Shown: positions 8,341-40,790, counted from the stretch's first letter. The stretch: 64,000 bases of DNA from an uncultured virus (IMG/VR IMGVR_UViG_3300025459_000001) (IMGVR_UViG_3300025459_000001); one strand, 5' to 3'. Numbers and translations are program-made. Notes: a model not told the origin generated them from the sequence alone.

Positions 8341-8343
8341 CTT

Positions 8344-17960: not shown

Positions 17961-19904
17961 TCACTGAATCCAACTGCCCATCACCAGCGGAGGGAGAGCG
18001 CCCGGCATCGTGCCATCGCTCGCGGCGTTCGCCTGGTTGATGTTAAGCGGCTGGTACCAGCTCGCCATCGTCGCGTAAATGATGTGCGGATCGCACTTCG
18101 ACGGGGGGGCTACGCTGGTGATCCCCGCTGTCGCCGCTAGCGGAACATTGAACAGCGCCATGCAATTGGCTAGGTCCGCCATCGTTCCCGGCCCTCCGAT
18201 CAGCGCATCGTAGTCCACCAAGCCCCGGTAAGGACCCACTCCTGCATAGCCGGTGCTCGATCCACTCGGCATATTCGACCACACCGGGCTCACGCTGGAG
18301 ATATCTCCATAGGTCGCGCTCGGATGGGCTGCCGTGCCGTTGTCCCAGTGGTTGCCTTGAGCCGCCGAAGGCCAATAATTATTCGTGTTCCCCGCCGTCC
18401 AGTTGTTGCATGCCGCACCGCCCCACGTGCAGGCGGTTGCATTGTAGGTATTGCTCGTGTCCGGCTCGATACCGTAAGTCCACCCGAAGACTAGGTTGTC
18501 TTTGGCAATCACGTTGACATCGGCGTTGCCGGTAGATTCGCCGGGGGAGAGCCCTTGACTTTCGCCTGCCGCGTCGGGCAGCGATGCGATGACCGTGTTG
18601 TGAGACTCGGTGGTCCCGTTTGTGCCGCCGTTGCCGATGGAGTGAAAACAGATGTTTGTGTTGACGGGCTCGCTGCCGATTACCAGACCCACGTTGCGCG
18701 TCACGCAGACGTTGTGGGCGAAGATGAAATTCGTCGTGTTCGCCGAGCCATTGTACTGAAGCACTCCGCCGCAGCCCTGGCACGCGTTGACGCTCCGCAC
18801 GTTCGGCGTGATGCCGATGTTGTATTGGTAGATTGCAGTGCCCGTTCCGCCCGCCTGTCCCGTGCCGTCGTAAATCTCGTACTGATCGGTGTGGATGTTG
18901 GTCGTGTTCGATGGAACCAGCACGATTGAGTCGGGAGTGTTCGAATTGGAATAGTACGTGGTAGCCACGTCGCCGACCACGTTGTATTGGGTCAAGATCG
19001 GGCTCAGCAGATTGCCGCCCCAGGAACCGGCTCCAAGCAACGGACCTTCATGGGCGCTCGAAGAAAACCACCCGTTCCCGCTGAGCGTCAGAGAAAACGC
19101 CTCATTCGGACTGGTCGCACCCTGATAGAACGTCATGGCGCTTTGCGGATTCATTGCCACGTTGTTCTCGACCAGAATGGGCTTTTCACTGTAGTTCGTG
19201 TAGTCGCAGATCAAGGCGGTGGTCGAGTTGCATCCCGTATCGGCCGAAAAGCCGATCCAGAGGTTGTTCTCAATAAGGGTCGAACCCCCATTCCCCCAGA
19301 CGCTATGGGCTTGGATCGCGTCCCAGCCGCCGCCGGAGAACACCGCGTCGATCAGCTGAAAGCCCGGGGTGCTGCCGCTGTTCCCGAAACCGACGTTGAT
19401 ACATTGAATGCTCGCGGCGGAAGAGCCGCAGGGCGACGCAACGATCACGTTTTGCAGATTCCAGACCGCATCGCCGTAAGATCCGCAACTGCTATCGGCG
19501 TGAAATGCGATGGGAGACGTACCGTTCACCGAGTTGACCGTGACGTAGTTGGACGGGCTTGCAGCGCTGAAATCGAGCGTTCCGCTCTGGCAGACATCGA
19601 AGCCGAACATACTGGTGCCCCAGACCGTTCCGGTGCTTGCAAAGAGATAGTTCCGAATCCCGGCACCGTCGAGCTTCAGATCTCCTTGAACCTTGATCAG
19701 CCCCCCCACCGTCCATGTGGGAATGTTGTTAGTCACCGTATCGCCAGCAGCGATTACGACGGCATAGCCCGTCCCGTTGGGCACAACTCCCCCAGCCCAC
19801 GTTGACGTGCTGTTGGCCGGGCCGCCGCCACTGCCGTTCGACGTAACGGTGGTGACGGCGAAACTGAGCGAGCAGAAAGCGAAAATGGCAAGGATGGTCT
19901 TCAT
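17961..19904 (-). CDS. signal-peptide-bearing beta-helix-like protein (true start MKTILAIFAF at 19904)
   Basis: ATG overlaps the upstream TGA (ATGA). Hydrophobic leader ending SFA. Asn/Gly-rich beta-helix-like repeats. The ORF-track extension to 20408 overlaps the upstream gene. Confidence 0.7.
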   Translation of the reverse strand: MKTILAIFAFCSLSFAVTTVTSNGSGGGPANSTSTWAGGVVPNGTGYAVVIAAGDTVTNNIPTWTVGGLIKVQGDLKLDGAGIRNYLFASTGTVWGTSMFGFDVCQSGTLDFSAASPSNYVTVNSVNGTSPIAFHADSSCGSYGDAVWNLQNVIVASPCGSSAASIQCINVGFGNSGSTPGFQLIDAVFSGGGWDAIQAHSVWGNGGSTLIENNLWIGFSADTGCNSTTALICDYTNYSEKPILVENNVAMNPQSAMTFYQGATSPNEAFSLTLSGNGWFSSSAHEGPLLGAGSWGGNLLSPILTQYNVVGDVATTYYSNSNTPDSIVLVPSNTTNIHTDQYEIYDGTGQAGGTGTAIYQYNIGITPNVRSVNACQGCGGVLQYNGSANTTNFIFAHNVCVTRNVGLVIGSEPVNTNICFHSIGNGGTNGTTESHNTVIASLPDAAGESQGLSPGESTGNADVNVIAKDNLVFGWTYGIEPDTSNTYNATACTWGGAACNNWTAGNTNNYWPSAAQGNHWDNGTAAHPSATYGDISSVSPVWSNMPSGSSTGYAGVGPYRGLVDYDALIGGPGTMADLANCMALFNVPLAATAGITSVAPPSKCDPHIIYATMASWYQPLNINQANAASDGTMPGALPPLVMGSWIQ

Positions 19905-22900
19905 GGGTGTACGATGGTGAGCCGCGCGCTCAGCAGCGACGCGGTAGCCGAAGAACCGAGCGTATCGGAACCGTTGCGGTAGATCCTGCCGAATAGCATC
20001 GGCCCTGGCGTGCCTGCAACGCAAGCGCTGGGCAGCGTGAGGGTCTGCGGCCCAATGGCGTTCGAATAGCTCGCCGTAGTCTGCGCGGTGCTGGTGTACG
20101 ACCGCGCCGAATCCCAAGCGGGATCGAGGCTCGCGCCTGTCGCGGGAACACAGGCCAATTGCAGATACCACGTGGCCGCACCGCTGGTCGCCGTGGTCAA
20201 CCACTCCAGATCGAAGGTCACTGAGGTCCAGGAGTTTGAAAGCTGCGTCTGAAAGACCACCGCTGCCTGCGTTCCAGTCGCCGCGCCAAGGAAATCTACC
20301 TGGCCGAAAATGTTGTTGGTGAGTCCTGCGTGGGGGTTGAATTGCACCTGGTTCGTCCCGGCCGCGAAAGAGAAATTGCAGCCCGCCACTCCCAGTTGCG
20401 AGAGACACTTGAACTCGCGCAGATCTGTCGTAGTGCTGACGGGGATCTCCGCACTCACGTTTGAGCCGCTCACTTGGAACGTGGCGTTTTGATAACCGGA
20501 TGCCGCCGCTGGAGTCGTGCCGTTGAAGTTCGGCGACGTTACAGCGGAGCCATTCACGTTAACACTTCCGCCTCCTCCGCCTCCACCACTTCCGCCTCCG
20601 CATACAGCCGCTCCAGCTACCCACGTGACATCCGAGCCGGTGCCCGAGGTGGAACATGCCCCAATCGTACAGTTCGAACAGTACATCTTCGAGCCGTTGC
20701 CGATCTGCCCGTTGGCGGTCAATTGGCTGATCTGCGAGTAGGTCTGCGGCTGGTAGGAGTGGACAAAGATTTTCCCTGGATTCCCCTCGCTGTTCATGTT
20801 CCAGGCAAGTGCTCCGTTCGTGATGGTGCTCGTAAGGTTGTCGAACTCGCCGATGGTGCCGATGCCGTACTCGAAGATCTTATAGCCGGTCGGCGTGGAT
20901 TGGTCATCGAGAATCGTAAGATTGCGGACGTGGAACTCGGTTGTAACACCGAGAGCGAGCGCATAGTTTGGGCCGCCGTAGAATGAACCTGCCCCAGCAC
21001 CCCACTTTCTGGCCACGTCTCGCAGCGTCAGGCCGTTGACACTTACCAGGCCGCTCGATGTTTCCGACAGCCCAATGTCGTCCAGATTCTCAAAGTAACT
21101 ATTGGACACTTCGAGGCGGTTCACGTAGGCATTCACCCCATAGGACGGACCACCGGAAATCGTCACGTTGCTCAGTTGGAGGGTGGAGGTGTTCCCAATT
21201 GCAGCCCAGTCCACAATTCCTCCCATCATCGACTGCGGATTCGTGGAAAGAATTTGCACGTTCGTCATCTGAACGAACGGGTTACTTCCAAGATAAAAAT
21301 TCGCGGTGCATCCCAACCACCGGCATTGAGGTCCTGCCATCCCACCGCCCCGGATAATAATATTAGAATAAGAAATGCTGGAGTTGGTCGGATTGTACGG
21401 CGCCTGACGCACCGGATCGTCCACCATGCCCTCTAGTAGTCCATTGCTCCATGCCACGTTACTAAGTTGGGTCGTGTCGATATTTTCACCGTTCTTGACG
21501 GTGAAATTGCTGACCGTCGCGCCGCGCTCCTGATCTATCCCGCCAGGAGCGTTGTGGATTGAGATCGATTCATCACTTGAGTTGGTCACCTGGAGATCCG
21601 AGGCGACTAGATCGACATCACCATTGGAGAGTAGACAACCCGCTACATTCAAACATTGCACACCCTGAATCAACGGGTGATCGTTGAATTGACTAATCAG
21701 GACGTTCCCAGTGCCACCCGTGCTGCGAAAGTTCGTGACGGTCGGGTAATAGGCATCCTGGATCTGGAAGGCCAACGGAGCCTCAGATGTGACCACCGCG
21801 CGCGTCGTCCAAACCCATAATCCATCCACCGTCCAGTTGGTAAACTTGGCCCGCGTGCCGCCTTCGAAGTAAAATCCATCGGCGTTTTGTTGATTGTCGA
21901 GCACGAAACGAGCTCCGCCAGACATCGCCCACTCCTGAGAGAATCCGGTACAGGTTGCAATGTGGAATGGAGCCGATGCTGGTGTGTAAATATGATAATC
22001 GCCATCTGGCATATAAATGCTGGTGCCTAGCGAACAAGCGGCGGCAACTGCGGCTGAATTGTCTGGAGCATATTGATAGGTCGCTCCCGCCGGGAAATCG
22101 GGTGAGAAGGACGGACTCACCGTAAGCGTCGTGTTGTTCGTCACGCTCTGGACTACGCTTCGCTGCGGGTGGTGCTGGTAGGTCCAGCCCGCACCGATCA
22201 GCACAGCGGTGTCGGCGCAGGTCCCGTTGGACACTCCCGAGGTCGCAAAGGTGAACGTCTTCGGGTAATCGCCAGTACCCACGCCGGTGATCGTGTGTGC
22301 GCCATTCATGTCGGCGCACGTCCCGGTCGAGCCGTTCACGTAGTAGACCGAATCGCCGACCGTGAACCCAGGCCATTGAAGTGACGTACAGGTGGCCACG
22401 TTGGAAGTGATCGAGCAACTGAGGTGAGGGGTCGGCGTCACACCGCTGAGAGTGATCGAGTCGGACGCGTAAAACCCATTTGCCACGCCGCTGGTGGTGA
22501 TTTCAAAGTTATAGCTTGATGTGGGATCGTTCGTGAAAAACGCTGGCTCGTTGGTGATCGAGTAGGTCCCGTTCAAGGAGCTATTGCCGGTGCCAGCGAT
22601 GGTGACGTTGGCTCCGCTCGCCAGTCCATGCGGACTGTTGCAAGTGACGTACCCGACGTTCGCCGCAACCACTATGTTGCAGGCGTACTGACCCGCGCCG
22701 ACTTGCGGGTACATCGTGTGCTGCGTGGTGACGTGATAGGTGTCCACCACCTGGTAGATGGTCCAGCATTGGCCGGGGGCATTGTTGAGGGTGCCCCCGT
22801 AGATCGTCGAGCAGATAACGTCGCCTTTGCTCAACCCGGTGGTGGTCGCGCCGCCGAAGAAAGTGACAATTGAGCCGATGGACTGGATGCCCAATTCGTC

Positions 22901-23947
22901 CGGGCCGCTGGGCTGGCTGGTGATGTAGCCCGTTCCCGAGTGAACGGTGTCGTAAACGATGATCGGCTGATTAGCCGAAAACAACGTCGTGAAGGAGGTC
23001 CCTGTTCCGGTGACGGTAGCACCGCTTGTTGCCACCGTCCCGAGTCCGGCGAGCGCCGCTTGTCCGCCGACAATTGCCGAGGTGAAACTCGTAGGAGAGC
23101 TGGAGGTTTTGCCGCCCTGTCCGGGGCACCCCGAGGTGGTGTCGTTTCCGCTGGCGTCCAAACATAGCGGGGTGCCTGCCGACCCCGACACTGTTCCCGC
23201 CATTTGAACTTTATTCGTATACGTTCCCTGCGAGTTACCATTGAGCAAATTGGCAAGTCCGCTCGCCGCAGTGGTACCACCCGTGCCGCCCTGGCCTACG
23301 AGTAACGGAAAACTAAGGACGAAGCACCCCGAGGTGGTGTCGTTTCCGCTGGCGTCCAAACATAGCGGGGTGCCTGCCGACCCCGACACTGTTCCCGCCA
23401 TTTGAACTTTATTCGTATACGTTCCCTGCGAGTTACCGCTCAAGAGATTTGCGAGTCCTGTGGCGGCGGTAGTCCCCCCGGTTCCTCCCTGAGCAAGGGT
23501 TAACGGAAAACTAAATGCCCCTACTCCGGTTGAAAAGAAGGGGGTTCGCAGGGCCGTGTAAGTCACCACGGCATTGCCAGTGATTGCAATCTGGATGTAC
23601 TTGTGGTTCCCGTTTCCGTAGGCGATAGGCGGGCTGCTCGATTGAGTTATCTGTGAGGCCGTCCCATAACTCGTCCATGGACCCGAACAGGATACATCGG
23701 AGTAATTGAGGGCAACGGTCCAAGTGCCAGACCCGGAGACAACGCCAACAGAGTGGTAATAGTTGGAGCGTGAAATTGCCGACACATTGGACACCACACC
23801 AGGGCATCCAGGGATTTCTCCCGCCCAGCTAGAACTGATTCCGTAGATGACCGTTTGCAGGACAGCCTGTTGCACGGACTGTGCGAACAGAAGTCCCACG
23901 TGGGACGCCGCGAGGAGGGATATCAGGGCAAGTTTGCGCATCGGCAC
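19901..23947 (-). CDS. tailspike-like protein with pectate-lyase-like beta-helix and N-terminal signal peptide
   Basis: DNSAAVAAAC...IYMPDGDY beta-helix entry motif; fibre motif LAQGGTGGTTAA; leader MRKLALISLLAASHVGLLFAQ. Confidence 0.7.
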   Translation of the reverse strand: MPMRKLALISLLAASHVGLLFAQSVQQAVLQTVIYGISSSWAGEIPGCPGVVSNVSAISRSNYYHSVGVVSGSGTWTVALNYSDVSCSGPWTSYGTASQITQSSSPPIAYGNGNHKYIQIAITGNAVVTYTALRTPFFSTGVGAFSFPLTLAQGGTGGTTAATGLANLLSGNSQGTYTNKVQMAGTVSGSAGTPLCLDASGNDTTSGCFVLSFPLLVGQGGTGGTTAASGLANLLNGNSQGTYTNKVQMAGTVSGSAGTPLCLDASGNDTTSGCPGQGGKTSSSPTSFTSAIVGGQAALAGLGTVATSGATVTGTGTSFTTLFSANQPIIVYDTVHSGTGYITSQPSGPDELGIQSIGSIVTFFGGATTTGLSKGDVICSTIYGGTLNNAPGQCWTIYQVVDTYHVTTQHTMYPQVGAGQYACNIVVAANVGYVTCNSPHGLASGANVTIAGTGNSSLNGTYSITNEPAFFTNDPTSSYNFEITTSGVANGFYASDSITLSGVTPTPHLSCSITSNVATCTSLQWPGFTVGDSVYYVNGSTGTCADMNGAHTITGVGTGDYPKTFTFATSGVSNGTCADTAVLIGAGWTYQHHPQRSVVQSVTNNTTLTVSPSFSPDFPAGATYQYAPDNSAAVAAACSLGTSIYMPDGDYHIYTPASAPFHIATCTGFSQEWAMSGGARFVLDNQQNADGFYFEGGTRAKFTNWTVDGLWVWTTRAVVTSEAPLAFQIQDAYYPTVTNFRSTGGTGNVLISQFNDHPLIQGVQCLNVAGCLLSNGDVDLVASDLQVTNSSDESISIHNAPGGIDQERGATVSNFTVKNGENIDTTQLSNVAWSNGLLEGMVDDPVRQAPYNPTNSSISYSNIIIRGGGMAGPQCRWLGCTANFYLGSNPFVQMTNVQILSTNPQSMMGGIVDWAAIGNTSTLQLSNVTISGGPSYGVNAYVNRLEVSNSYFENLDDIGLSETSSGLVSVNGLTLRDVARKWGAGAGSFYGGPNYALALGVTTEFHVRNLTILDDQSTPTGYKIFEYGIGTIGEFDNLTSTITNGALAWNMNSEGNPGKIFVHSYQPQTYSQISQLTANGQIGNGSKMYCSNCTIGACSTSGTGSDVTWVAGAAVCGGGSGGGGGGGSVNVNGSAVTSPNFNGTTPAAASGYQNATFQVSGSNVSAEIPVSTTTDLREFKCLSQLGVAGCNFSFAAGTNQVQFNPHAGLTNNIFGQVDFLGAATGTQAAVVFQTQLSNSWTSVTFDLEWLTTATSGAATWYLQLACVPATGASLDPAWDSARSYTSTAQTTASYSNAIGPQTLTLPSACVAGTPGPMLFGRIYRNGSDTLGSSATASLLSARLTIVHP
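23126..23437. repeat. direct repeat, 114 nt identical, 198-nt period
   Basis: 23126-23239 equals 23324-23437; encodes duplicated GNSQGTYTNKVQMAGTVSGSAGTPLCLDASGNDTTSGC. Confidence 0.9.
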
Positions 23948-23991
23948 TCCTGTCTCACGGCGAGAGGGAAGCGCCTGAAATCAGTATACTT

Positions 23992-24735
23992 CTATCCTTT
24001 ATCCTCTGGTAGGGGGATTTCGCCCGTGATGGCTTGGAGTGCCGAGATCGTTTCCCGATACTGCGCATGGGAGAATGCCGCTGCCTGCGCATTCTTCAGT
24101 TCATTATCCCCGCTATAGACCCGCTCGTGGATGCCCCAAAGAAGCCCTACGAGGGCTATGTCGTCCGGCAGCAGGGGAATTGTATCGTTCACCGTCGCCA
24201 TCTGCGTGTTGGTCTTTCTGGTGCCCACAATGGTCAATCCCCGGTGCTGATCGGGAGTCCACACCACGCTATTTCCATCCGTGATGCTGAACGAGTCGTA
24301 TTGCCCATGTGGAGGGTCTGGCTCATTCGGGCCTGGGATGTAAACAGAGTCGTAGTTTGGAGCCGGAGCCAAGCCGATAGTCTTCGGAGGCAGGTTGTCG
24401 GTGTAGTACCCAATGGGTATATCCAACTCGCGCCGCCATCCTCTTCTCGTGTTGTTCATGTCGGAAACGGTAACTTTCGGCAGCCACCGACCCGCAAGAA
24501 AGACCTGCTCGATCGCCATAATGTCGTCAGGGACGGTGTAGGTCGGGACGCCCGCGAACACCGACATGGTCCACACGCGCTTGATACAGCCGGTTTGTTT
24601 GAGGAAATCGAGGAGGGTCAGATTGGCAAGATCCAAGAATTGAGCTGGCGTAATGCAACCAAGAACAAGACCGTTTGGTGGATCTTCTAAATAGTCGTAG
24701 CAAAGTCGATTATAGATGTCGGTCAGCGTTGCCAT
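23992..24735 (-). CDS. head-tail adaptor (tail tubular A-like)
   Basis: MATLTDIYNRL...AGVPTYTVPDD...IGLAPAP adaptor pattern. Confidence 0.6.
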   Translation of the reverse strand: MATLTDIYNRLCYDYLEDPPNGLVLGCITPAQFLDLANLTLLDFLKQTGCIKRVWTMSVFAGVPTYTVPDDIMAIEQVFLAGRWLPKVTVSDMNNTRRGWRRELDIPIGYYTDNLPPKTIGLAPAPNYDSVYIPGPNEPDPPHGQYDSFSITDGNSVVWTPDQHRGLTIVGTRKTNTQMATVNDTIPLLPDDIALVGLLWGIHERVYSGDNELKNAQAAAFSHAQYRETISALQAITGEIPLPEDKG

Positions 24736-25008
24736 CAGGACTCACCTGGTTCGATCTCTCGGCTTTCCTCGATCCGTTCGATCAAGTCGTCGGCCTCTTC
24801 CTCAGAACAGTCCGTCGTCTTCCCCCAGCCGTCATAGAACCCTTCGTCAGTGAACCAGTGCTCCAATCCTGTTGCATCCGTGAGATGATTCAGAACCTTC
24901 CCCAAGGACGCGCTGACGGGAGGCACTAAGGTTAGGATTTCAATCATTCCGCTTTCCCACTGAACACGCAGCTTCATGCTGCTTCGCTCCATACTGGAAG
25001 TGCTTGCT

Positions 25009-25674
25009 TCACAACGAACCTTTCCCCTCAGCGGGCTCAAGTTCCTTGGCCAGGAAATAGCGAGGGAATACCACAGACTCATACAGGAGCATCGCTTTTA
25101 TACCCCGCACGAATTCTTGGTACACAAGGCTGGCCGCATTGAACGGCGCTCCCACCTCCTTCAACATGATTCTTCCGCGCACATATTTGACTAGTACTTC
25201 CGCCAGTTCGTCATTCAGATCCACCACGTCTCCAGCGTTCACCAGCGGCGTTATGGGGGCCACTCCCTGGACTTCCAGCAGCCCGCCTCCATTCGCGTCC
25301 AAGGGGTGAATCCCGAAGACAGTCAATCCCAAAGGGAACCAGCGGGCTACCTGACCTTCCCATTGGTTTGAATCCACGGCCCAGTTCCGAAATCTCTGCG
25401 CGAGTTTGGCGAGGCTGTATTTTTCCAATTCCTGCTCTTCGTAGTAAACCTTCGTCGGGATCAAGATACCAGAAGGGATCGAGTAGAGCAGTTGGTTGGC
25501 AACGGTGAATCCGGGGACTGGTATGGTGTTCTGGTTCCAGCCGACCAAAAGGTTAGTGCGTCTAAGGACCTCGTTTAAGATTGACGTGACCTGCGCAGGC
25601 ACATAGAGGCCAGTGTTATTGTCCAACCCGTCCCATACGAGTTGCTGAAGCGTACTGAGGGTGAACGTGGGCAC
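25009..25674 (-). CDS. head-tail adaptor-like protein
   Basis: TLSTLQQLV...ILNE...ANQLLYSIP...FGIHP adaptor pattern. Confidence 0.55.
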   Translation of the reverse strand: MPTFTLSTLQQLVWDGLDNNTGLYVPAQVTSILNEVLRRTNLLVGWNQNTIPVPGFTVANQLLYSIPSGILIPTKVYYEEQELEKYSLAKLAQRFRNWAVDSNQWEGQVARWFPLGLTVFGIHPLDANGGGLLEVQGVAPITPLVNAGDVVDLNDELAEVLVKYVRGRIMLKEVGAPFNAASLVYQEFVRGIKAMLLYESVVFPRYFLAKELEPAEGKGSL

Positions 25675-26124: not shown

Positions 26125-26157
26125 GCTTCCTCCCTGATCTCACGGCAGTTCAGAGAG

Positions 26158-27929: not shown

Positions 27930-27932
27930 CGG

Positions 27933-28785: not shown

Positions 28786-28804
28786 ATTGTTTCTCCTTTG
28801 TTTT

Positions 28805-29170: not shown

Positions 29171-29181
29171 CGTGGGACCCC

Positions 29182-29883: not shown

Positions 29884-29886
29884 GGT

Positions 29887-31016: not shown

Positions 31017-33220
31017 CTCAGCCATCCTCCGGGAGGCTTGGCGTGATCCCACTTCTTCTTGAAGATCTCCATGTTCCGGTCGTACCTTCGACGAAACTCT
31101 TCTTGGTCATAATACGAGCGGAAGGTTTGGCCTTGAAGGTGTTGGGCTCTAACGGGTTTAACGGCGATTGTAAACCCGGCGATTCTGGCTCGCGCCAGAA
31201 AATCGTCATCGAGAAATCCGTATCCTCCGTTGAACTCCTCGTCATAAACGTATCCGCCGACAGCCTCGTAGACGTTTCTCGGGATGCACCACAGCGAGGT
31301 TTCCAGCTTCATCTGGCCAGTCAATACGAAGGTCTCAGGTGCCCACGAAGTAACCGTTTCTGGGACTGCCATTGTCTCCAGCCAATCGGGATCTTCGATC
31401 ATAACGTCATTGCACACGATGAAAATAAACTGCCCTTGCGCTTTTTCGAAGGCTAAATTGATGGCGGTGGCCTCTCCTTTCTGATCGGCAACGATGATCT
31501 CGATCCCTTCGGGGGAGTTCTGTTTGATTAACCCAAGGCTTCGGGCCGACATCTCCCTGACTTTACCTTCTGGATCGTAATCCACAAACACTACAGAGTA
31601 CTTCGGTCTGTCGTCCACTGCTACCACCCCTTCCCCACATACTGGGTCAAATCCATACTCGATTGGGTATCGGACAATTGCCTTCAAATGCGCTTCCCTC
31701 AGCCACGAGTCGATCACTTCAGGAGGACAGTGATGGTGCTCACCATATCCCGATGGTGCTATGGAGTCGTCTGGATTCGGATGCCGCGTGTCATTCGGAA
31801 CAGTGAAGACAATCCTGCCACCGGGTTTCAGCAGTTCCTTGAACTTCAAGAGTTGCTTGGGAACCGCGTCCGTGGGAAAGTGCTCCAGAATCTCTGTCGC
31901 GGCCACAACATCGAACGAATGCCGCTGAAACGGTCGGGGGAGGTCGCGGGCGTCTGAAATGATGTCCGCTGCGTTGGGTTTACAAAGGTGCTTGTCGAAC
32001 TCGTACTTGTCAAGATTAACGGCACCGATCTTCCGCATTTCTCCGCCATCGTCGCAACACCCTACATTCAGAATCTTCCCCTGACCCTTAGAGTGCTTGA
32101 GCGCAAAGATGAACTGTGCGCCGGTGTTTTTGTGATCCTCGACACCATACATCCATGTCTCGATGAAGTCGATGTACCGCTCCCAGTTGAAGGTAGATCT
32201 TGCCCACGGCATCATGTCGGCGCGGATCTGCTCTTGCAGTCCCACGTTGGACGCCAGCTTGTAAATCTCCCCAACATACCGGGCCTGCGTTAACGGATCT
32301 TCTGGATCACCAAAGATCCAGATTCCATGAAGGCAATAGTCTCCCGCTGCCCATGTTGGGGAAATGATCGGGATGGCACCCAGCGCCATTTCTTCGATAC
32401 CAGAAATAAACCCCGTTTCCGTAAACAGCGTCGGGTGAGCCGACATCCCACAGGACAATTTCTCCTGGTATAGCCGCTTCTGCCCGATCCTGCCCAGATG
32501 AGTGACCCCCGGTTGTTTCATCTCCCGCATGGCCTCATCGTAAATCAGCTTCCACTGATTGGTCGGCGGGTTCGAGGCGATGATCTTCTCCATGTTGTCG
32601 AACCCGTAGGCAATGACCAATTCAAGGTCATGCACCCACTGACGCGCTTTACGGAAGATCTTCAACAGGGGGAGGAGTCCGCGATCAGGAGAACTGGCAA
32701 AGATGATCTTCCTTGGATTTCTCGTGGGCACGCCTTCGGCCTCGATCTCCCGTATCAAGTCGTTTCGGATGCCATTGAACCCCTGGCACACCTTCTTGGC
32801 GTATTTGGGGTACTCTTTCATCGTGAAACTGGCATGAGTCGGGCAGAGAGCGATAAAGCGGTCTAATTTCTCCCACCGTTCCTCGGTAAGGTGGGGGTAG
32901 AACACATCTTGGCTAACCAATGACAAGACCTGTCCGGGATGCTCAAGGGGGAAATTATCGAGGACCTCTGGGCACCGAGACACGAACCACCATCCAGGCC
33001 GGGTGTAATCGGCCTCAGAAAGGGGTAGCCAGCGCGTCCCTAGCCACTCAGGGGGCGTATCCTGCCGCAGGGGGGCGTAGACCACCACCTCGTGCCCGCG
33101 CCTCGCCAAGCGCCTAGAAACCTCCACAACGGCGGTCTCCGAACCGCCTATTCCGGGGTCCTCAGGGTTGCGCATATCCCAAGGCTCGAAAGTGACGGGG
33201 CTGATGATCGTTACCTGCAT
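31013..33220 (-). CDS. multidomain glycosyltransferase: GT-B (GT4-like) + SAM methyltransferase + GT-A
   Basis: GIGGSETAV, SSPDRGL, ETGFISGIEEMALG; ILNVGC...FDVV..EILEH..LLKPGG; CNDV...YDEEF..GFLDDDF. Confidence 0.85.
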   Translation of the reverse strand: MQVTIISPVTFEPWDMRNPEDPGIGGSETAVVEVSRRLARRGHEVVVYAPLRQDTPPEWLGTRWLPLSEADYTRPGWWFVSRCPEVLDNFPLEHPGQVLSLVSQDVFYPHLTEERWEKLDRFIALCPTHASFTMKEYPKYAKKVCQGFNGIRNDLIREIEAEGVPTRNPRKIIFASSPDRGLLPLLKIFRKARQWVHDLELVIAYGFDNMEKIIASNPPTNQWKLIYDEAMREMKQPGVTHLGRIGQKRLYQEKLSCGMSAHPTLFTETGFISGIEEMALGAIPIISPTWAAGDYCLHGIWIFGDPEDPLTQARYVGEIYKLASNVGLQEQIRADMMPWARSTFNWERYIDFIETWMYGVEDHKNTGAQFIFALKHSKGQGKILNVGCCDDGGEMRKIGAVNLDKYEFDKHLCKPNAADIISDARDLPRPFQRHSFDVVAATEILEHFPTDAVPKQLLKFKELLKPGGRIVFTVPNDTRHPNPDDSIAPSGYGEHHHCPPEVIDSWLREAHLKAIVRYPIEYGFDPVCGEGVVAVDDRPKYSVVFVDYDPEGKVREMSARSLGLIKQNSPEGIEIIVADQKGEATAINLAFEKAQGQFIFIVCNDVMIEDPDWLETMAVPETVTSWAPETFVLTGQMKLETSLWCIPRNVYEAVGGYVYDEEFNGGYGFLDDDFLARARIAGFTIAVKPVRAQHLQGQTFRSYYDQEEFRRRYDRNMEIFKKKWDHAKPPGGWLR

Positions 33221-33508
33221 CTAAAGGTACTCCGCAGCGGTCGGCTGCACGGTTATCATTTTGACGGGCTGGAGTTTCTGGTGGAAAGTCATCTGCTGAA
33301 GCCAGAGGTTGCCGGAAAATAGAACATCGAAACGTTCTTTCCATGTGAACCTCCACCGGGTGGTCACTACCCCATCTGGCCTAGAACTGATGATCGACGG
33401 AAGGGGCAAGTACTCAGGTTGGTCCTTGGCGATGACTGTCTCGTTGTACATCTTGGCGTCTGCCATCGACGGGTGACGCAACAAAACTGGTGAACACGGG
33501 TATGGCAT
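33221..33508 (-). CDS. conserved phage hypothetical protein
   Basis: AKDQPEYLPLP...RW..TWKER...LWL.......QP pattern; RBS GGAGG. Confidence 0.65.
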   Translation of the reverse strand: MPYPCSPVLLRHPSMADAKMYNETVIAKDQPEYLPLPSIISSRPDGVVTTRWRFTWKERFDVLFSGNLWLQQMTFHQKLQPVKMITVQPTAAEYL

Positions 33509-33550
33509 CTAATTTCCTCCTGTGTGCCCCGAGAATAAGCACTCGTGGGA

Positions 33551-33889
33551 CTACTTCTCCATTTGATTCGGCGTAGTGAGAGGTTTCACAACCCCCTTGG
33601 GAGCTTCGGGTGGCCTGACCAACTCCAACTTGTCGGTCAGCGTGCAGTTCTCGCATTTAGCCGCTTTCCGTGCAGCGGTCGCCGCTTGATCGAAGGCCGA
33701 TTGCGCCACTTCGTGTTGCTTGTACAGGCCGTTGAACTGAATCTGGATTTGCGCCATCTGGTTCTCGATGGTCAATAAAGTGATCTTGGCGTCCTGAAGC
33801 TTCACTTTTTCCGCATCGGGAATCTTGGGCTGTTCTTGGGATTGAGCAAAAGCGAGGGAAGCCAGCAGAGAGAGAAGGACCGTTTTCAT
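33551..33889 (-). CDS. signal-peptide coiled-coil protein
   Basis: MKTVLLSLLASLAFA-Q; heptad-rich; C-terminal CENC; own promoter TTGACT-17-TATACT (33897-33925). Confidence 0.7.
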   Translation of the reverse strand: MKTVLLSLLASLAFAQSQEQPKIPDAEKVKLQDAKITLLTIENQMAQIQIQFNGLYKQHEVAQSAFDQAATAARKAAKCENCTLTDKLELVRPPEAPKGVVKPLTTPNQMEK

Positions 33890-34191
33890 GACTCTGAGTA
33901 TAGGGATTTACGTTGGTAGAGTCAAGAGACTTTCTCCGGCATATCCCAGATCAAGCGTGTACTGCGGCAACCAGTAGCAGGCGCTTCCCGGCTCAATCAC
34001 TCGATAACCTTATGGCGGATCGCGGTGGCCACCGCCGGATGCGCCGGGTGAGCAGTACGTGCTGCTGCGAATCGGTGACCAATTATTCCGCGTGTGCGTC
34101 AGCGTAACTGCCGAGGAAATTGAGGGGGACGCCCGCCTTCTTGCAATCCGCCAACCCGCCCCCGGACCCGACAGAAAAGCCTAGTTCTGTC

Positions 34192-35793
34192 TTAGTGAAA
34201 CGCCGTAATCAGCATACCTAGCGATTGACTCGGATTGACAACAAAATTGAAGCTTAGTTGTGTCTGCGCTGTGTCAAAGAAGTGGAGGCCGACATCGCCA
34301 TTTGTGAGTCCACTCGAATCACCGCCGCAAACCCCGGCAGTCGTGACGGAACAAGCGTTGATGGCGGTTGGGCACGGGAAATCGTCCACTACACCGGTCG
34401 GACCTGAGACAGACAGAACAGGCCCCGTTCCCATTGTGCCAGTACCAATCAATAAATCATTGGTTTCGCCTGGAGTTATCAGTGGCACCCCGGATATCGA
34501 GGCACCCGTGGATGGAGTGCTGCCCGCTGTCGTGTCCTTAAAGACAGATGAGGATGTGATTTGAGTACTGCCAGAGCCAGCCGTTGCTGCCGTGTCGAGA
34601 GAGGTAGCTGTGGTGCAGTAATAAGTCAGAAGGTCGTTGCCTCCGCCAGCGCTGACGGCACTAATCGTATAGGTATTGGGGTTTGAGATCGTGACGCTGT
34701 GGTACCAGACCGTCCCACTTCCACCACCATTTGACACGCTGGAAAAATTATTACTGAGACTATCCGAGACACTTGTCACGTAAGAAGCATCGTCGGTGAC
34801 AACCACCATGGTTGTATTTGTGGGACACGGAATGTTTTGCACATATGTAGCCGCCACATTAGACATATTCTGCGAGGATGCGAGCACCTGTGCCCCAGAT
34901 CCAGTCGGGGCCGACCCTCCCGAACCGGGCTTGAACGCAGCAGCCATGATAGTGAATGAATCATGGGTTGTTTGAGAGATTGTGACCGCGGGAGTAAAGC
35001 TCGTCGCCGTGGCTATGCAATACATCTCCAGATGACCGGCAAATGTATTCTCATCCAATAGAGTGCAGCCGGAGGGTATCGTGATCGCGCCCCAGGCGTT
35101 GCCCTGCTGTATCGTGTTGTTTTCGCTCTCATCATCCACTTCGATATAGACAAGATCGCCCACCACCACGGTGATCCCTGTGCCGGAAATGTTCGGAGCC
35201 GTGTTATTGGTTGGAACTACAGCAGTCTTGCAGGAACTAGTTCGCAGGGCACCCGTCGTAGCAATATTATAGAAACTTCCAAGGCCGAAATAAAAATCTC
35301 CTGTTTTATGCCCCCACGTCACGGTTACTTGTGTTGGGGTGGTGGTTGCAGGGGGGACGAAATTCATCGCGTAGTAGATGTTATGATCTGCTCCATTTGG
35401 AATCGCAATCCCAGCGTCCTTGCAACCTGAACCGACCGTGAAAGTTGAGTTCCACGTATTCCCGCTTCCGCTGTTGCCATTGTCCGTCAGAGTTGGCGTG
35501 CAGGGTGACGCGCACGTTTGGACATATCCATTGCCGGTAGTGGGATTGTTGGGCCATTCCCCCGAGACGATTACGAGGGAGCCGGTGGTCACGCCGTTGG
35601 GCCAAGCGGTCGGGTCTAGCGTAAAAATAGGAGCGTTCATACCAGTGGTTGTTGAACGCGTGATTACATTCTTGCCGAAAAATTGGGTCAACGACGGAGT
35701 ACCACCTGAAGCATGGGAGCCCATCGTCCCTGGACCCGGCATTGGAATCTGATGCCAGGACAGCGAGAGGAGAACAAGAGAAAGTAAAATCAT
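34192..35793 (-). CDS. Ser/Thr/Gly-rich beta-rich protein with hydrophobic leader
   Basis: 533 aa; MILLSLVLLSLSW; overlaps the upstream stop codon. Confidence 0.7.
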   Translation of the reverse strand: MILLSLVLLSLSWHQIPMPGPGTMGSHASGGTPSLTQFFGKNVITRSTTTGMNAPIFTLDPTAWPNGVTTGSLVIVSGEWPNNPTTGNGYVQTCASPCTPTLTDNGNSGSGNTWNSTFTVGSGCKDAGIAIPNGADHNIYYAMNFVPPATTTPTQVTVTWGHKTGDFYFGLGSFYNIATTGALRTSSCKTAVVPTNNTAPNISGTGITVVVGDLVYIEVDDESENNTIQQGNAWGAITIPSGCTLLDENTFAGHLEMYCIATATSFTPAVTISQTTHDSFTIMAAAFKPGSGGSAPTGSGAQVLASSQNMSNVAATYVQNIPCPTNTTMVVVTDDASYVTSVSDSLSNNFSSVSNGGGSGTVWYHSVTISNPNTYTISAVSAGGGNDLLTYYCTTATSLDTAATAGSGSTQITSSSVFKDTTAGSTPSTGASISGVPLITPGETNDLLIGTGTMGTGPVLSVSGPTGVVDDFPCPTAINACSVTTAGVCGGDSSGLTNGDVGLHFFDTAQTQLSFNFVVNPSQSLGMLITAFH

Positions 35794-38700
35794 CGCTCCA
35801 CCCTCCAGTTTACCTCAGCCCCGCTTGCCACGGTTAAAGATCCAGTGGACCAGTTGCAGACTTGGAAGTTCACGTTGTTTGTCGTTGGATAAGCAGTGAT
35901 TGCTAAGCCACCCGTAGTAGCTGGAGTGAATCCGGTGACCGCTCCCCACGCCGCATTCGGGGTGAACGAGATAACATCAGTTGAGGCCACTCCAGATGCC
36001 GAGATGGTCAAAGTAGCACAACTTGTGCTAGTAATCGCCCCTAGACTATTCAATGATCCAGTCGAGGATGATGCAGTCGTACCCGTGGCAATAGTTTGGG
36101 GAATGTTGTACGCAGTACCACCTGCAAGGGCGAGGGTAGCGGCTCCAGATACTCCTGCCGTTCCCGAGCCACTCTTGGCACCGCCCGCTCCAGTGACCAA
36201 CGCGATATTCCCTCCCGCGCCACCAGAATCATTACCCGCCCCGCCTGCCCCGCCAGTGCCCGAGGTGATAGTGATTGTCCCACCAGCACCTCCCACTGTG
36301 GAGGTGGTGCCCGAGCCGGTCGCTGCACCTCCTGTACCGCCTGCGATGGCCGGAGAACTACCAACGCCTCCAGTGTTGGTCCCAGTTGACGAGGTAGCAC
36401 CGCCCGCCACGCCACTGATATTGAAGAGGGTTGTGGCTGTCGTACCGTTGCCGCCTGCGCTGGCTGGAGCTGTTCCTGCTAGTGTCAACCCAGAACTGGA
36501 AGTAATAGGATACGTGAAGGTAGCGTCGGCGGTGGGGTTGGCCAAGCCAGATGTTGACTTATCGAGCGTGATTGCAGGTAGATCACCGGAGGCAATGGTT
36601 CCCCATACTGGCGCTGCACTGACCGTCCCGTTGCCCGTCTGGACTAGGAAGTTTTTAGTACTGGTGGTGTTGCCCGCCAGACGGGTGGGCGCTGGAGTAG
36701 AGTTCTCATAAATCAAATCTCCGAGGGTGTTCATCGGGTTAGTGAGAATGTTCGACCATGAGGTTGTGCCTGATCCATTGGTGGTGAGGGAGTACCCATT
36801 TGTGCCCCCGGTGGGCGGCAGGGTGAAAGTGTAGTTGGCTGTTGCCGCGCTAGCTAGGATTGTGTGGAAGGCGGCACTGGGGTTAGCCAGTTGGAGAGTG
36901 CCGCCCACGCTGTTGTCCACGCCCAGAGTTACAGCCGCCGTCCAGGAGGATGCGGAGGTGCTGGAAGCGTTGGGAACAGTTCCCGCCGCAGCGGAGGTGG
37001 CGTTCGTGCCACCCTGAGCGATGGTCACATTCGCTTCACTACCAACCGCGTAAGTCGAACCGGCAAAGGTCGCTATTCCAGCACTAGGTTGGCTAGTAGC
37101 ATACACCAATCCACTAGCAACGATTGGACCTATTACAGTAATACTGCTAGCAGGAGCGGCAAAGTTTAGCGTAGTAGTGTTAGTCGTGCCCAACACTAAC
37201 TGGTTTGTAGCAGCCGTAATAGTCTGAGCAGCAGTAAACGTATTAGCTCCCAGCGTGGCAAGAGTACTTGTAACGTTAGGAGCAGTAACAGTCACTGCTC
37301 CAGAACTAGTGGGGAACGACAAAGTGGTCAGATTAGAACCAGCACCAAATATCAACTGGTTAGACGTAGGGGAGAAAGTCTGTGCGGTACTCCAGGTATT
37401 TGCTTGCCCGATACCAGGAATAGTTTGAGAAGTCGTTGGCATGGTAAAGGTTGCTGTACCACCCAACGCAAACGTAGCGGTATAGGCTCCTGTCTCTGTT
37501 ATACCGCCGCCACTTGCGATAGACAATCCAGTAACCGTAGTAGCCGCAATCGCTCCAGTACCAATCACTGCCAACGCACCAGCGGAACTCATTTGTACCC
37601 CGTTACCGTTGCTGTCGAACCGGACGGGGTGTGCCGCTGATCCAGACGCCGTACTAACTCGAAAGATATTACCAGTACCTGTGTTACTGGCCGTATCCGT
37701 CAACTCAAATAAATCTATAGCAGATCCAGTCGTAGAATTGTAGGTAAGAGTGGTAGTGTCGGCCGCCATTGTAAGCGATAGATTGCCAGTTGGATTTCCA
37801 ATAGAACTCCAGCCTGGACTACCTCCCGATGGACAGGTCTGGAAAGATGGGGTAGTAGTCCCATAGCTAGTTGCACCAGACATCAAACATTGTCCATTAC
37901 CTGTGGGAGTTACCCATGTTGGATTTGTTGCACCAGACATCAACGCACTATACGCGGTCGTTGCTAACCCGGCAAGTGCTGTTGGGGATGATCCATATAC
38001 AAGATATCCTGCGGTCATTGACGTTGGGTAGGCAATGGTTGAGAAGATTGGATTCGCCGCTCCCTGTCCAATGAGAGGCATATTAGATGCCCCCTGTGCC
38101 GTGGACACCGGGGATGACCCAGAAGCTCCGGCAAGCACCACCCCGTATTGCGTGAGGAGACTTCCGCAAGATATAGCTGTCGAGGTCGATCCGTAAAGAA
38201 TGCCGCCCTGCGTACAGGAGCTTGGGTGAGAAACCGTAGAGTACGCCGGAGTTGCAGATGCCCCTTGGCCGACCAACGGCATATTTAGCGCTCCTGCTGC
38301 AAGCCTTGCCGCCGCTCCCGACGAACCACCAACAAATAAGTCCCCGGTCGTCGTTAAGGGGTAATTCGTGAGTGATGCGATGGCTGGAACGTAGGAAGCC
38401 GTAAGCGCTGTCCCATTCCATACTCCAGAGCTAATCGTACCAACCGATGTCAAGCTTGATCCAGTGCCACAAATCCCAGTCTGCGGGTTTAATAGTTCCC
38501 AGTAAGTTCCATCATAAGTGGCAATGGCGACAGCGGTTGTCAATATATCGTTGGCAACCAAAGCGCTCTGCCCGCACTTGGTAATCGTCGGAGAGCTAAG
38601 GCCGTTGACCGTTAAGGTGGGAGCGGCGGCGGTATTAGCTGCCGTAGCCTTCCACATCACCGTTAATCCAGCGACCATTAATGTAGCTGGCGGAGCCAAC

Positions 38701-39863
38701 GTCACGGTTTGCGCCTGAGCGGTCCCGCCACCCGCAGCGTACTCTGTTGAATCCAAGTCAGCCCAGCTTTTATATGAACCAACCGCTGAAGATCCGCCAC
38801 TCGCCAACATCTGGTTAGCCGTGCCCGCCGTGCCTGATTGCACTGCCCCAGTCGAAGTCGTGCCTCCGAACAGAGGCGCATAGGCCGTCAGGGATGTCGC
38901 TCCCGTACCTCCACCAGCGACAAGAGCCGTACCAAAAGAAGGGGTCGTTGAAGACCCGCCAGAGACTAAAGGAACTCCGCTGGTTCCGCTGGTAGCAATC
39001 CAAGTAGGGTTCGTCGCTCCAGCCCCAAGAACCCCATAGGCCGTAGTGGCTAAGTTGGCGAGTGCTGTAGCGCTCGACCCATAAACGAGTCCCCCTGCGG
39101 TCATTGCAGTTGGATACGCGATCGAAGAAAAGACCGGATTCGCCGCGCCTTGGCCTATTAGCGGCATGTTAGATGCCCCCTGTGCACTAGCTGTGGGAGA
39201 TGACCCAGCACCACCACCAAATAACACCCCGTATTGAGTTAATGCCGCTGAACTAGCCCAGGAAGATGCACTGCTGAAATAAGGGATACCTCCGTTGTTG
39301 CCTGCTACAGTCAACGCAGGAGTGGTCGTTGCTGAACCAACCGAGATCAATCCGCCCGTAAAGCTTACACTAGTGACGGTCCCGTTTATTGCCGAGGTCG
39401 TTAATAGATCCCCGTTCACATCATGAAATTGCCAGCCCGCTGCCGTGCTCATAATCGCCGAGGTGTTCGCAGCCATCGTCATTGGCGCTAGAATCTCGTA
39501 TGCGGCGGTTGTGCCATTTACGTAGAGCGTGACAGATGACACTGAAGAACCACTCGCATTTACCAACTCGATTGAAGTTATATAGGTGTTCACGGTGGAT
39601 GTGCCCGTATAAAGAGCGCTCCCGGTAGATGTCGGCAGTTGGCCTTGGGCTAACACGCCGGGAGTTGTTATGTATGGGGCCGACGTGCTCACAGTGGTGC
39701 CAAAGATGGTGTAGGTGACCGCACTTGCGGTCCCCGCAGATCCATAGATTGTGCCGCTAGGTGCCAGCGTGAATAGTTCATTGTATGGCACGCCGACCGT
39801 CGAGATTGGCTGTTGCGCCAACGCTGGCAAGCACAATACGAGGATAGGCAGGAACTTCCTCAT
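35790..39863 (-). CDS. long fibre-like Ser/Thr/Gly/Ala-rich protein with signal peptide
   Basis: 1357 aa; MRKFLPILVLCLPALA-QQP; fibre motifs VAGGGTGATSLT, IAQGGTNAT, GTVTSV; internal repeats. Confidence 0.75.
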   Translation of the reverse strand: MRKFLPILVLCLPALAQQPISTVGVPYNELFTLAPSGTIYGSAGTASAVTYTIFGTTVSTSAPYITTPGVLAQGQLPTSTGSALYTGTSTVNTYITSIELVNASGSSVSSVTLYVNGTTAAYEILAPMTMAANTSAIMSTAAGWQFHDVNGDLLTTSAINGTVTSVSFTGGLISVGSATTTPALTVAGNNGGIPYFSSASSWASSAALTQYGVLFGGGAGSSPTASAQGASNMPLIGQGAANPVFSSIAYPTAMTAGGLVYGSSATALANLATTAYGVLGAGATNPTWIATSGTSGVPLVSGGSSTTPSFGTALVAGGGTGATSLTAYAPLFGGTTSTGAVQSGTAGTANQMLASGGSSAVGSYKSWADLDSTEYAAGGGTAQAQTVTLAPPATLMVAGLTVMWKATAANTAAAPTLTVNGLSSPTITKCGQSALVANDILTTAVAIATYDGTYWELLNPQTGICGTGSSLTSVGTISSGVWNGTALTASYVPAIASLTNYPLTTTGDLFVGGSSGAAARLAAGALNMPLVGQGASATPAYSTVSHPSSCTQGGILYGSTSTAISCGSLLTQYGVVLAGASGSSPVSTAQGASNMPLIGQGAANPIFSTIAYPTSMTAGYLVYGSSPTALAGLATTAYSALMSGATNPTWVTPTGNGQCLMSGATSYGTTTPSFQTCPSGGSPGWSSIGNPTGNLSLTMAADTTTLTYNSTTGSAIDLFELTDTASNTGTGNIFRVSTASGSAAHPVRFDSNGNGVQMSSAGALAVIGTGAIAATTVTGLSIASGGGITETGAYTATFALGGTATFTMPTTSQTIPGIGQANTWSTAQTFSPTSNQLIFGAGSNLTTLSFPTSSGAVTVTAPNVTSTLATLGANTFTAAQTITAATNQLVLGTTNTTTLNFAAPASSITVIGPIVASGLVYATSQPSAGIATFAGSTYAVGSEANVTIAQGGTNATSAAAGTVPNASSTSASSWTAAVTLGVDNSVGGTLQLANPSAAFHTILASAATANYTFTLPPTGGTNGYSLTTNGSGTTSWSNILTNPMNTLGDLIYENSTPAPTRLAGNTTSTKNFLVQTGNGTVSAAPVWGTIASGDLPAITLDKSTSGLANPTADATFTYPITSSSGLTLAGTAPASAGGNGTTATTLFNISGVAGGATSSTGTNTGGVGSSPAIAGGTGGAATGSGTTSTVGGAGGTITITSGTGGAGGAGNDSGGAGGNIALVTGAGGAKSGSGTAGVSGAATLALAGGTAYNIPQTIATGTTASSSTGSLNSLGAITSTSCATLTISASGVASTDVISFTPNAAWGAVTGFTPATTGGLAITAYPTTNNVNFQVCNWSTGSLTVASGAEVNWRVER

Positions 39864-39864
39864 A

Positions 39865-40479
39865 TTACTGGTAGTACGCCGTCAAAGACATTGTAGTGCA
39901 ACCAGTTGTGGTTGACCCAGCATCCGCAGTAGCCGCCGCAAAGCCAATGCCGCTAGTAAAATTCTCCAGCGCAAGCTGTCCAGGCGCAATGGTAAGCCCA
40001 AGTCCAGCCTGTACCATATAGGAATCCACTACTCCCGTTCCAATGCTCGGCACGCCAGAGTTGTTATAAAACTGAAGGAAACACGTCACGGTGCCATAGT
40101 TGCTTGCGGAAAATCCGTAGAGGTTCCCGGCACTGCCCTTAATGTTTAAGGCCGTTCCCGTGTAGGTATGGTGATACATAGTGAAAGCATACGTGGCCGA
40201 GGTGCTGGGAGTAGTCGGTGAAACCGACAGGGCATTCGTCACGTAGGCATTCACCCCGATGACATTACCTGACGGGGCCGACCCATAAGCGGTAGGAGTG
40301 GCTGTAATTGAAGAGCCTCCTTCTTGTGATAAATTGACGCTCACGGGAATCATACTGGAGATGCCTTGCACGGTGATTACTCCAGGCGCAGCAGTGCCCG
40401 CCGTCCCAGATCCAGTTACGGGTTGCTGCGCCAAGGAGACACCGGCACAGAGAGTGAGTGCCGCGAATAATTTTCTCAT
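39865..40479 (-). CDS. signal-peptide protein with C-terminal beta-sandwich (decoration-like)
   Basis: MRKLFAALTLCAGVSLA-QQP; IKGSAGNLYG...FLQFYN...FTSGI. Confidence 0.7.
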   Translation of the reverse strand: MRKLFAALTLCAGVSLAQQPVTGSGTAGTAAPGVITVQGISSMIPVSVNLSQEGGSSITATPTAYGSAPSGNVIGVNAYVTNALSVSPTTPSTSATYAFTMYHHTYTGTALNIKGSAGNLYGFSASNYGTVTCFLQFYNNSGVPSIGTGVVDSYMVQAGLGLTIAPGQLALENFTSGIGFAAATADAGSTTTGCTTMSLTAYYQ

Positions 40480-40790
40480 TTCTGTTTCCTTTCAATCCAT
40501 TCGAAGTCGTCGTTAATGTCCCAGTGCTTTTCATCGGCGCGGCAGAGTTCACGTACTTGTTTTCGCCAAACCTCAATCTTTTCGTTAAGCTCCTTCAGTT
40601 CTTTTTCGGCTTCCTTTTGGTCTATCTGGGCTTGGAGGATTTGATTCCTGTCCGTCATGACACGCTGGAGGGCTACGTAAGCCTTCCTAGTAAGTTGTAG
40701 CACTTCCACTTTTTGCGCGTCCGTCACGGGGGCTGGCTTCTCATCGGAGAATGCCACCAGCGAGGCGAGCAGGAGGATAAGCGTTCTCAT
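40476..40790 (-). CDS. signal-peptide coiled-coil protein
   Basis: MRTLILLLASLVAFS-D; heptad-rich; similar architecture to 33551-33889. Confidence 0.7.
   Translation of the reverse strand: MRTLILLLASLVAFSDEKPAPVTDAQKVEVLQLTRKAYVALQRVMTDRNQILQAQIDQKEAEKELKELNEKIEVWRKQVRELCRADEKHWDINDDFEWIERKQK

Follow-up and report, generated by a model that had tools for sequence, protein, structure and literature searches.

Assembly of tailed phages is, in the textbook account, wholly cytoplasmic. Here we examine seven phage genes whose products carry N-termini resembling Sec-type signal peptides. The genes lie in a 64,000-nucleotide stretch of DNA (hereafter the window, meaning this whole stretch at its full length) from an uncultured virus, IMG/VR IMGVR_UViG_3300025459_000001. 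A reading made from the sequence alone had placed them between the capsid and tail genes, from 17,961 to 40,790, and had proposed that their products are exported, disulfide-bonded in the periplasm and added to virions at or after lysis, or else displayed on the host surface. All seven open reading frames (ORFs) are present at these places, on the minus strand. In order of transcription they encode a 104-aa helical protein with a single Cys (40476..40790), a 204-aa protein (39865..40479), a 1357-aa fibre-like protein (35790..39863), a 533-aa protein with 11 Cys and an atypical hydrophobic leader (34192..35793), a 112-aa helical protein with a C-terminal CxxC (33551..33889), a 1346-aa putative tail fibre with 28 Cys (19901..23941) and a 647-aa protein with 15 Cys (17961..19904), the start of which overlaps the stop of the fibre gene.

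Over positions 1-56772 the window is 99.9% identical to a public virus record, G002. Since this 96,503-bp record carries direct terminal repeats and has a completeness rating of 100%, it represents a whole phage genome and not a bacterial island. The virus is a complete, podovirus-like soil phage of 96.5 kb.

Leaders of the seven proteins

Leaders were called with a crude rule of our own. It requires nine successive uncharged residues, the first of them at positions 2-13, whose Kyte-Doolittle average is 2.0 or more, together with a non-acidic n-region and a small -1/-3 site. The rule flagged 7/7 of the named genes compared with 1/58 of the other listed window ORFs, in agreement with the proposed Sec-type leaders. 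The single other ORF flagged (55742-56083) has no basic residue, and its hydrophobic core begins only at residue 12. A basic residue is present in six of the seven leaders. Most of the leaders had been said to end in an AxA-like site; a small-x-small site is found in five of the seven, whereas the leader of the 533-aa protein (start at 35793) has neither an AxA site nor a basic residue. Judged by our rule against the whole type I layout (basic n-region, uncharged core of about 8-15 hydrophobic residues, small residues at -3 and -1), six of the seven proteins conform and the 533-aa protein does not. Gln directly follows the predicted cut in four of the proteins (204, 1357, 1346 and 112 aa).

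The start of the 1346-aa gene had been put at 23947, a GTG, but ATG 23941, with AGGAG 6-10 nt upstream, is the likelier start. Shine-Dalgarno-like sequences also precede 35793 (GGAGG) and 40479. The starts at 19904 and 39863 are coupled and have no recognisable ribosome-binding site, and the site ahead of 33889 is weak.

The large proteins had further been credited with a phage-fibre motif. AQGGTG does occur twice in the 1346-aa protein and, as a variant, once in the 1357-aa protein, but it is absent from the 647-, 533- and 204-aa proteins. As a control we took classical fibres from unrelated viral contigs that share this neck motif. An ORF spanning the motif match was found at 7/9 loci (L040-L048), and none of these seven passed the leader rule.

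The seven proteins hold 15, 28, 11, 9, 3, 2 and 1 Cys; with the leader removed the counts become 14, 28, 11, 8, 2, 2 and 1, and are even in five of the seven. Neither Pfam nor PHROGs supplied a family for any of them, and sequence searches of the PDB with the 647-, 1346-, 1357- and 1682-aa proteins (the last being the large tail protein described below) gave no meaningful match. Outside the window, G002 encodes at least five more small proteins with textbook leaders, mostly followed by Gln (70077-70412, 86153-86908 and 90193-91454), one of which adjoins a 612-aa protease of the papain family. Judged by such leaders, about a tenth of the phage's proteins seem to be exported.

Export signatures in homologues

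If the leaders were chance hydrophobic stretches they should not recur in relatives, and conservation in homologues had been named as a check. The leaders are kept. Of the 16 proteins homologous to residues 1-260 of the 1346-aa protein, 15 have a leader, and the remaining one begins inside the conserved domain and looks truncated. The leader sequences themselves diverge, while behind them 20 columns within residues 30-152 are invariant (alignment A1), and conservation ceases past about residue 260. Leaders are also found in 55/119 homologues of the 1357-aa protein and in 63/134 Met-starting homologues of the 204-aa protein.

Within the leader-bearing homologues, Gln occupies position +1 of the candidate cut in 50/55 (1357-aa family), 14/15 (1346-aa family) and 50/65 (204-aa family). 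A comparable Gln motif was seen in 11/59 and 17/71 leaderless homologues, counts that exclude leaderless rows not starting with Met. This preference matches the Q-rule, the occurrence of Gln at +1 in substrates of signal peptidase I, which was described for Bacteroidetes in a study that does not deal with Acidobacteria (PMC5837995). The likeness to those substrates lies in the Gln after the cut, present in 4/7 window proteins and in 77-93% of leader-bearing homologues.

The host is probably acidobacterial. The only hint, a weak one, is a 3.7-kb contig with a capsid gene of 67% identity in a metagenome-assembled genome (MAG) labelled Candidatus Sulfotelmatobacter (Acidobacteriota). In 300 kb of this MAG, Gln stands at +1 in 10/23 leader-like ORFs compared with 48/271 controls, counts that are only suggestive of Q-rule use. 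Glutaminyl cyclase (PF05096) had no match in the MAG, which is incomplete.

Cysteine content follows the leader. The median Cys content is 1.49% in leader-bearing homologues of the 1357-aa protein compared with 0.16% in leaderless ones (p 3e-12), and 1.33% compared with 0.52% in the 204-aa family (p 2e-10). Even Cys counts are likewise commoner with a leader than without, at 44/53 versus 20/51 in the 1357-aa family and 55/65 versus 30/57 in the 204-aa family. Abundant, even cysteines tied to a leader are the pattern of disulfide-bonded exported proteins. Because the leaders are conserved in kind and not in sequence, are followed by Gln at +1 and go with this Cys signature, three independent signatures agree, and the leaders look like true Sec and signal-peptidase-I signals. 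On these sequence features, export of the leader-bearing proteins is very likely.

A separate pattern was noted among the homologues of the 1357-aa protein (P0001-P0120): all 14 listed with the Peptidase_S74 chaperone domain (PF13884) are leaderless, and no leader-bearing homologue has PF13884.

A leader-bearing putative fibre beside the tail adaptors

The 1346-aa protein begins with a leader of about residues 1-20 and a predicted cut before Gln. Behind it lie a conserved jelly-roll N-domain (about residues 28-135, predicted local distance difference test score (pLDDT) about 90), two neck motifs and a variable distal part. An internal direct duplication in the gene (23126-23316 and 23324-23514, 87% DNA identity) accounts for the pair of neck motifs and for the Cys-containing segment behind each. 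Directly upstream lies the second of two leaderless SU10-type adaptor paralogues on the minus strand (23992..24735; PF24175, E 3.9e-10), and the first is at 25009..25674 (PF24175, E 9.2e-08).

This arrangement is shared. In 6/6 distinct, non-identical viral contigs with 35-75% identity in the N-domain, the family gene is found downstream of the adaptor genes, at most about 1.5 kb away. Three contigs have it directly after the second adaptor, one after another leader-bearing gene and one after an endolysin-family gene; in the last, only the first adaptor was seen. The fibres of all six relatives carry a leader. The contig with the endolysin-family gene is L038. There this gene (9468-9959; phrog_7, E 6e-39) separates the leader-bearing fibre from the second adaptor, and two further products are encoded upstream at the same locus, a leader-bearing protein of 273 aa and a membrane protein of 70 aa.

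The family gene stands ahead of that for the large tail protein, a leaderless product of 1682 aa (12891..17939, minus strand) which follows the leader-bearing genes and whose position would be that of a nozzle. Its orthologue in the relative L014 is 37% identical over about 1570 residues and comes directly after the adaptors.

Residues 141-232 of the 1346-aa protein match fibre ORFs of unrelated viral contigs (E 3e-5 to 9e-4), which are classical, leaderless fibres. Some homologues carry PF12708, PF13229 or PF13884, and distal segments have been exchanged between fibres. In a scan with a single pattern, taken from the N-domain alignment, no relative of the N-domain was found in a bacterial collection of one genome per species covering 185,579 species; the family was seen only on viral contigs. 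Fold searches of two jelly-roll models stayed in the range of noise (XepA at Z 8.1, Ena at Z 7.8, and nothing below 1e-3 with Foldseek against the PDB). Prediction of a complex between both adaptors and three copies of the fibre N-domain gave no answer (score 0.02), and we draw nothing from it. Taken as a strong circumstantial case, the leader-bearing family at the adaptors is likely to be the tail fibre of this clade, and so a part of the virion.

The 647-aa protein, encoded next, has a sole homologue, 96% identical. Its neighbours in a language-model atlas are right-handed beta-helix families (0.88-0.91), a lead only; the protein is probably a right-handed beta-helix of the tailspike or depolymerase type. 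At the corresponding place, L028 has two unrelated leader-bearing proteins of 852 and 544 aa, and replacement by unrelated proteins is the usual pattern of swappable tailspikes.

An accessory block and two small helical proteins

The other large leader-bearing proteins belong to a block at 34192-41275. Its first gene encodes a leaderless 118-aa protein with no match in relatives (40919..41275, minus strand), and the 104-aa gene is the first with a leader. Upstream the block is bounded, after the head genes, by a terminator-like hairpin on the minus strand (41357..41399; a 20-bp stem with 12 G-C pairs and a T-run), which is followed by a promoter-like site (41314-41342). Beyond its last gene comes a 300-nt gap with another promoter-like site on the minus strand (33897..33925, 10/12 matches), just before the 112-aa gene; no terminator-like site was found at this downstream end.

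Residues 929-1240 of the 1357-aa protein share 49% identity with the distal part of the fibre encoded beside the adaptors in L028; a tblastn search against cultured phages returned no match for this protein. In the 204-aa protein the leader is joined by a Gly/Thr/Ala linker, modelled with low confidence, to a jelly-roll knob at the C-terminal end (residues 100-204, pLDDT >95), which recurs at the C-terminus of many longer proteins. The shared segment of the one and the leader, linker and knob of the other mark the block as a fibre-type cassette. For the 533-aa protein we found one homologue, 56% identical and on another viral contig, which has a hydrophobic leader and lies beside two other leader-bearing genes; the atlas neighbours of the 533-aa protein itself are viral. 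The proteins of the accessory block may belong to the virion, or may instead act on the host surface or as free enzymes.

The 104- and 112-aa proteins had been read as bracketing the block, with possible roles as co-exported chaperones or spanin-like proteins. An orthologue of the 112-aa protein is present in a relative that has no block, so this protein is a backbone gene and is not tied to the block. The spanin-like role gained no support, as neither protein nor its look-alikes has a Cys at +1 or a lipobox, and by a pattern of our own no lipobox ORF exists on either strand of 33000-41600. Paralogy between the two is weak (E 0.049). A leader, a Pro-rich stretch, a helix and two Cys near the C-terminus make up a plan common to four proteins, namely the 112-aa protein, its L007 orthologue and two small proteins, encoded after the fibre gene in L029 and L039, that look unrelated. 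Since similar small leader proteins come after the fibre gene in these two relatives, the small helical proteins may be co-exported helpers, a role that here is suggested by position only.

Relation to known systems

The sole experimental analogue for such proteins joining a virion comes from the cultured, short-tailed Cellulophaga phage phi18:3 (NC_021794.1, Pachyviridae). Its consecutive gp085, gp086 and gp087 (547-785 aa) start with textbook leaders followed by Gln at +1, and in the GenBank record they are annotated as structural or tail proteins from tandem mass spectrometry (MS/MS). The system differs from ours in its Bacteroidota host, in a crAss-like tail with a muzzle domain and in the paucity of Cys in gp085-087 (0-3). 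No paper discussing these leaders was found.

Classical podovirus fibres and tailspikes, such as T7 gp17, P22 gp9 and the SU10 fibres, combine a conserved docking part at the N-terminus with a distal part that varies, and their genes lie by those of the adaptor or nozzle. To our knowledge they have no signal peptide and few cysteines. The 1346-aa protein has the docking and variable layout, the adaptor adjacency and the neck motif in common with them; the leader and the abundant cysteines set it apart. Export signals in or beside a late operon are known from morons and other exported accessory proteins (lambda Lom and Bor, T5 Llp, spanins), which are small membrane proteins or lipoproteins. 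In contrast, the exported proteins considered here are fibre-like, of 204-1357 aa, and one family is fixed in the tail module.

An architectural parallel to the 1346-aa fibre lies in the mosaic adhesive trimer (MAT) fibres of Bdellovibrio bacteriovorus. In these, a signal peptide precedes an invariant, beta-rich N-domain of some 130 aa, behind which come a fibre and a tip that can be swapped; they are located on the cell surface and are related to phage tail fibres (PMC10769870). The likeness noted here is one of architecture. The MAT genes are chromosomal genes of a predatory bacterium and serve its own surface, whereas the present gene belongs to a tail operon, in a phage genome that is complete and has terminal repeats; and S74 domains co-occur with signal peptides in MAT fibres, whereas the S74-containing homologues of the 1357-aa protein are leaderless. 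Q-rule proteins have also been described in Porphyromonas gingivalis phages, where they are small and without assigned function and are read as modifiers of the host, not as fibres (PMC10367356).

A possible two-compartment route of assembly and its alternatives

These data allow us to propose a route by which the phage could complete its particles. Late in infection the host Sec machinery would move the fibre and tailspike-like proteins across the inner membrane, where the leader would be cut, in four of the seven proteins just ahead of Gln. Disulfide formation and folding, probably as trimers, would then take place in the periplasm. The leaderless capsid protein, portal, adaptors and large tail protein would meanwhile assemble in the cytoplasm, and the two sets would come together only once lysis breaches the envelope, with the conserved jelly-roll N-domain of the 1346-aa fibre docking on the adaptor or tail hub. 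Further receptor-binding or sugar-cutting appendages taking the same route would be the 647-aa protein and the accessory cassette (204, 1357 and 533 aa). T4 and P22 particles that lack these appendages can take up fibres or spikes in vitro, and late docking is therefore physically plausible. In the full-text literature, with most subscription journals beyond its coverage, we found no description of tail fibres of tailed phages routed through Sec.

We give this proposal as a whole, from Sec and signal-peptidase-I substrates through periplasmic folding to docking at lysis, a probability of about 0.5; its later steps of export, folding and docking are inferred. Of the sequence-only reading, the parts that stand are that the leaders behave as export signals and that the large proteins are fibre- or tailspike-like, whereas arrival on virions and its timing are inferred. 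A broader form is more tentative still: that a whole clade of soil podoviruses, probably of Acidobacteriota, builds a two-compartment particle in which head and tail core are cytoplasmic and every receptor-binding fibre and tailspike is periplasmic, disulfide-bonded and leader-processed, possibly aided by small co-exported helical proteins, and docks when lysis opens the inner membrane, and that together with phi18:3 these phages represent a widespread, undescribed route.

Several observations weigh against the proposal. The leader rule is crude and our own, and the best fold match of the jelly-roll N-domain (XepA, Z 8.1) is at the level of noise. In L014 no fibre gene separates the two adaptors from the large tail protein, so the fibre is not indispensable at the adaptor position. 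The MS/MS annotation in phi18:3 could reflect co-purifying secreted proteins, and BLASTP of 18 window proteins against 16 phi18:3 proteins gave no match. Finally, the accessory block is absent from seven loci (six distinct phages) with 55-87% capsid identity, in which the head genes are followed directly by the 112-aa orthologue and glycosyltransferases. Such absence from relatives, in a block with its own promoter-like and terminator-like bounds, is the usual pattern of morons, whose action is on the host, and an accessory block so bounded could therefore have host-surface or free-enzyme roles.

The last points lead to the main alternative, in which the proteins are exported and never join the virion. 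The accessory block alone, or all seven proteins, might form surface fibres like those of MAT type, mask receptors or exclude superinfection, or be released as glycan-cutting enzymes that free progeny from slime. The absence of the block from six relatives and its bounds fit this account, as do the gap at the adaptors of L014 and the five or more further small leader-bearing proteins encoded outside the virion module. MAT fibres of the same layout do sit on the cell surface (PMC10769870), and the P. gingivalis phage leader proteins following the Q-rule are read as host-surface modifiers (PMC10367356). We nevertheless consider it less likely than the virion route. The 1346-aa family lies within the tail operon beside the adaptors in 6/6 relatives, the next gene overlaps its stop codon, and the family occurs on viral contigs only and not in the genome collection. 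Elsewhere in the genome there is no leaderless protein resembling a long fibre, and the phi18:3 analogues were detected in virion preparations.

That the hydrophobic N-termini do not serve export at all would leave assembly wholly cytoplasmic, with the leaders acting as a tether on the cytoplasmic face of the membrane, in trimer formation or as sites of trimming by a phage protease. Wholly cytoplasmic assembly is the default for tailed phages; the 533-aa leader, with no basic n-region or AxA site, would suit it, and the P. gingivalis phage paper describes capsid proteins whose predicted 'signal peptides' are probably removed by a prohead protease (PMC10367356). Against this, the n-h-c layout, the small -3/-1 residues and Gln at +1 are kept despite drift in sequence, and high, even Cys counts track the leader while leaderless homologues of the same families are Cys-poor, which is hard to explain in the cytoplasm. 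We regard the idea as improbable. Least credible of all, with little to recommend it beyond the starts at 19904 and 39863 that lack a recognisable ribosome-binding site and the weak one at 33889, is that the leaders are artefacts of gene calling and the true starts lie downstream: Shine-Dalgarno-like sequences precede 23941, 35793 and 40479, leaders recur in independently called homologues from many sources, and the fibre family has no conserved internal Met after the leader.

Were the proposed route of export, periplasmic folding and docking at lysis correct, the final assembly step and infectivity would hinge on host secretion, signal peptidase, the disulfide machinery and the timing of lysis. 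Disulfides could harden the fibres for harsh soils, and the fibres could act on the envelope from inside ahead of release. Leader-bearing receptor-binding proteins would be misannotated as host or moron genes and would misfold when expressed in the cytoplasm, with consequences for engineering and host prediction. Phi18:3 offers a cultured system in which the idea is directly testable.

Genome context and other features

Genes of the window lie nearly all on the minus strand. Their order of transcription runs from the large terminase (52882-55128, minus strand) and portal (47646-49514, minus strand) through the leaderless major capsid protein (43034-43990, minus strand; phrog_9953, E 6.9e-17), which was the anchor for finding relatives, and two small head-proximal proteins to the leader-bearing block (33551-40790, minus strand). 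A glycosyltransferase/methyltransferase cluster (29182-33220) comes next, followed by the two SU10-type adaptors, two leader-bearing genes and the 1682-aa tail protein. Beyond the latter lie Cys-free proteins resembling internal proteins. Three of these are consecutive and large (641, 1011 and 535 aa; 3383-9951), with zero Cys and about 13% Lys+Arg; in this they are the opposite of the leader-bearing proteins, and they would fit virion proteins that are internal or ejected. No tRNA genes were found. The lysozyme family PF00959 was absent from a scan of the full phage record, and no lysis cassette was recognised.

The glycosyltransferase cluster between the head and tail genes encodes a 735-aa GT4, methyltransferase and GT2 fusion, a HAD/PNKP-type phosphatase and two GT2-like proteins, and is kept in the relatives L007, L017, L023, L027 and L029. 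We considered whether the neighbouring glycosyltransferases might glycosylate the fibres at NxS/T and dropped the idea, as these sequons are not enriched (z 2.0 at most).

Between the portal and terminase genes (49789-51314) are a Clp_N-domain protein (PF02861, E 3e-20) and a match to a proteasome subunit (PF00227, E 3e-07). A TnpB/IS605 OrfB-type gene lies within the phage genome at 61918-63024 (PF01385, PF07282; phrog_506, E 9e-92). At 56508-57192, inside a plus-strand ORF (56418-57212), a 30-bp unit is repeated in tandem 22.8 times with 85% matches; the copy number of this array differs in G002, which has a related inverted array at about 69.5-69.8 kb. Lastly, a 169-bp repeat of 95% identity occurs in the region of the portal gene (48204-48372) and again about 10 kb away (58613-58781).

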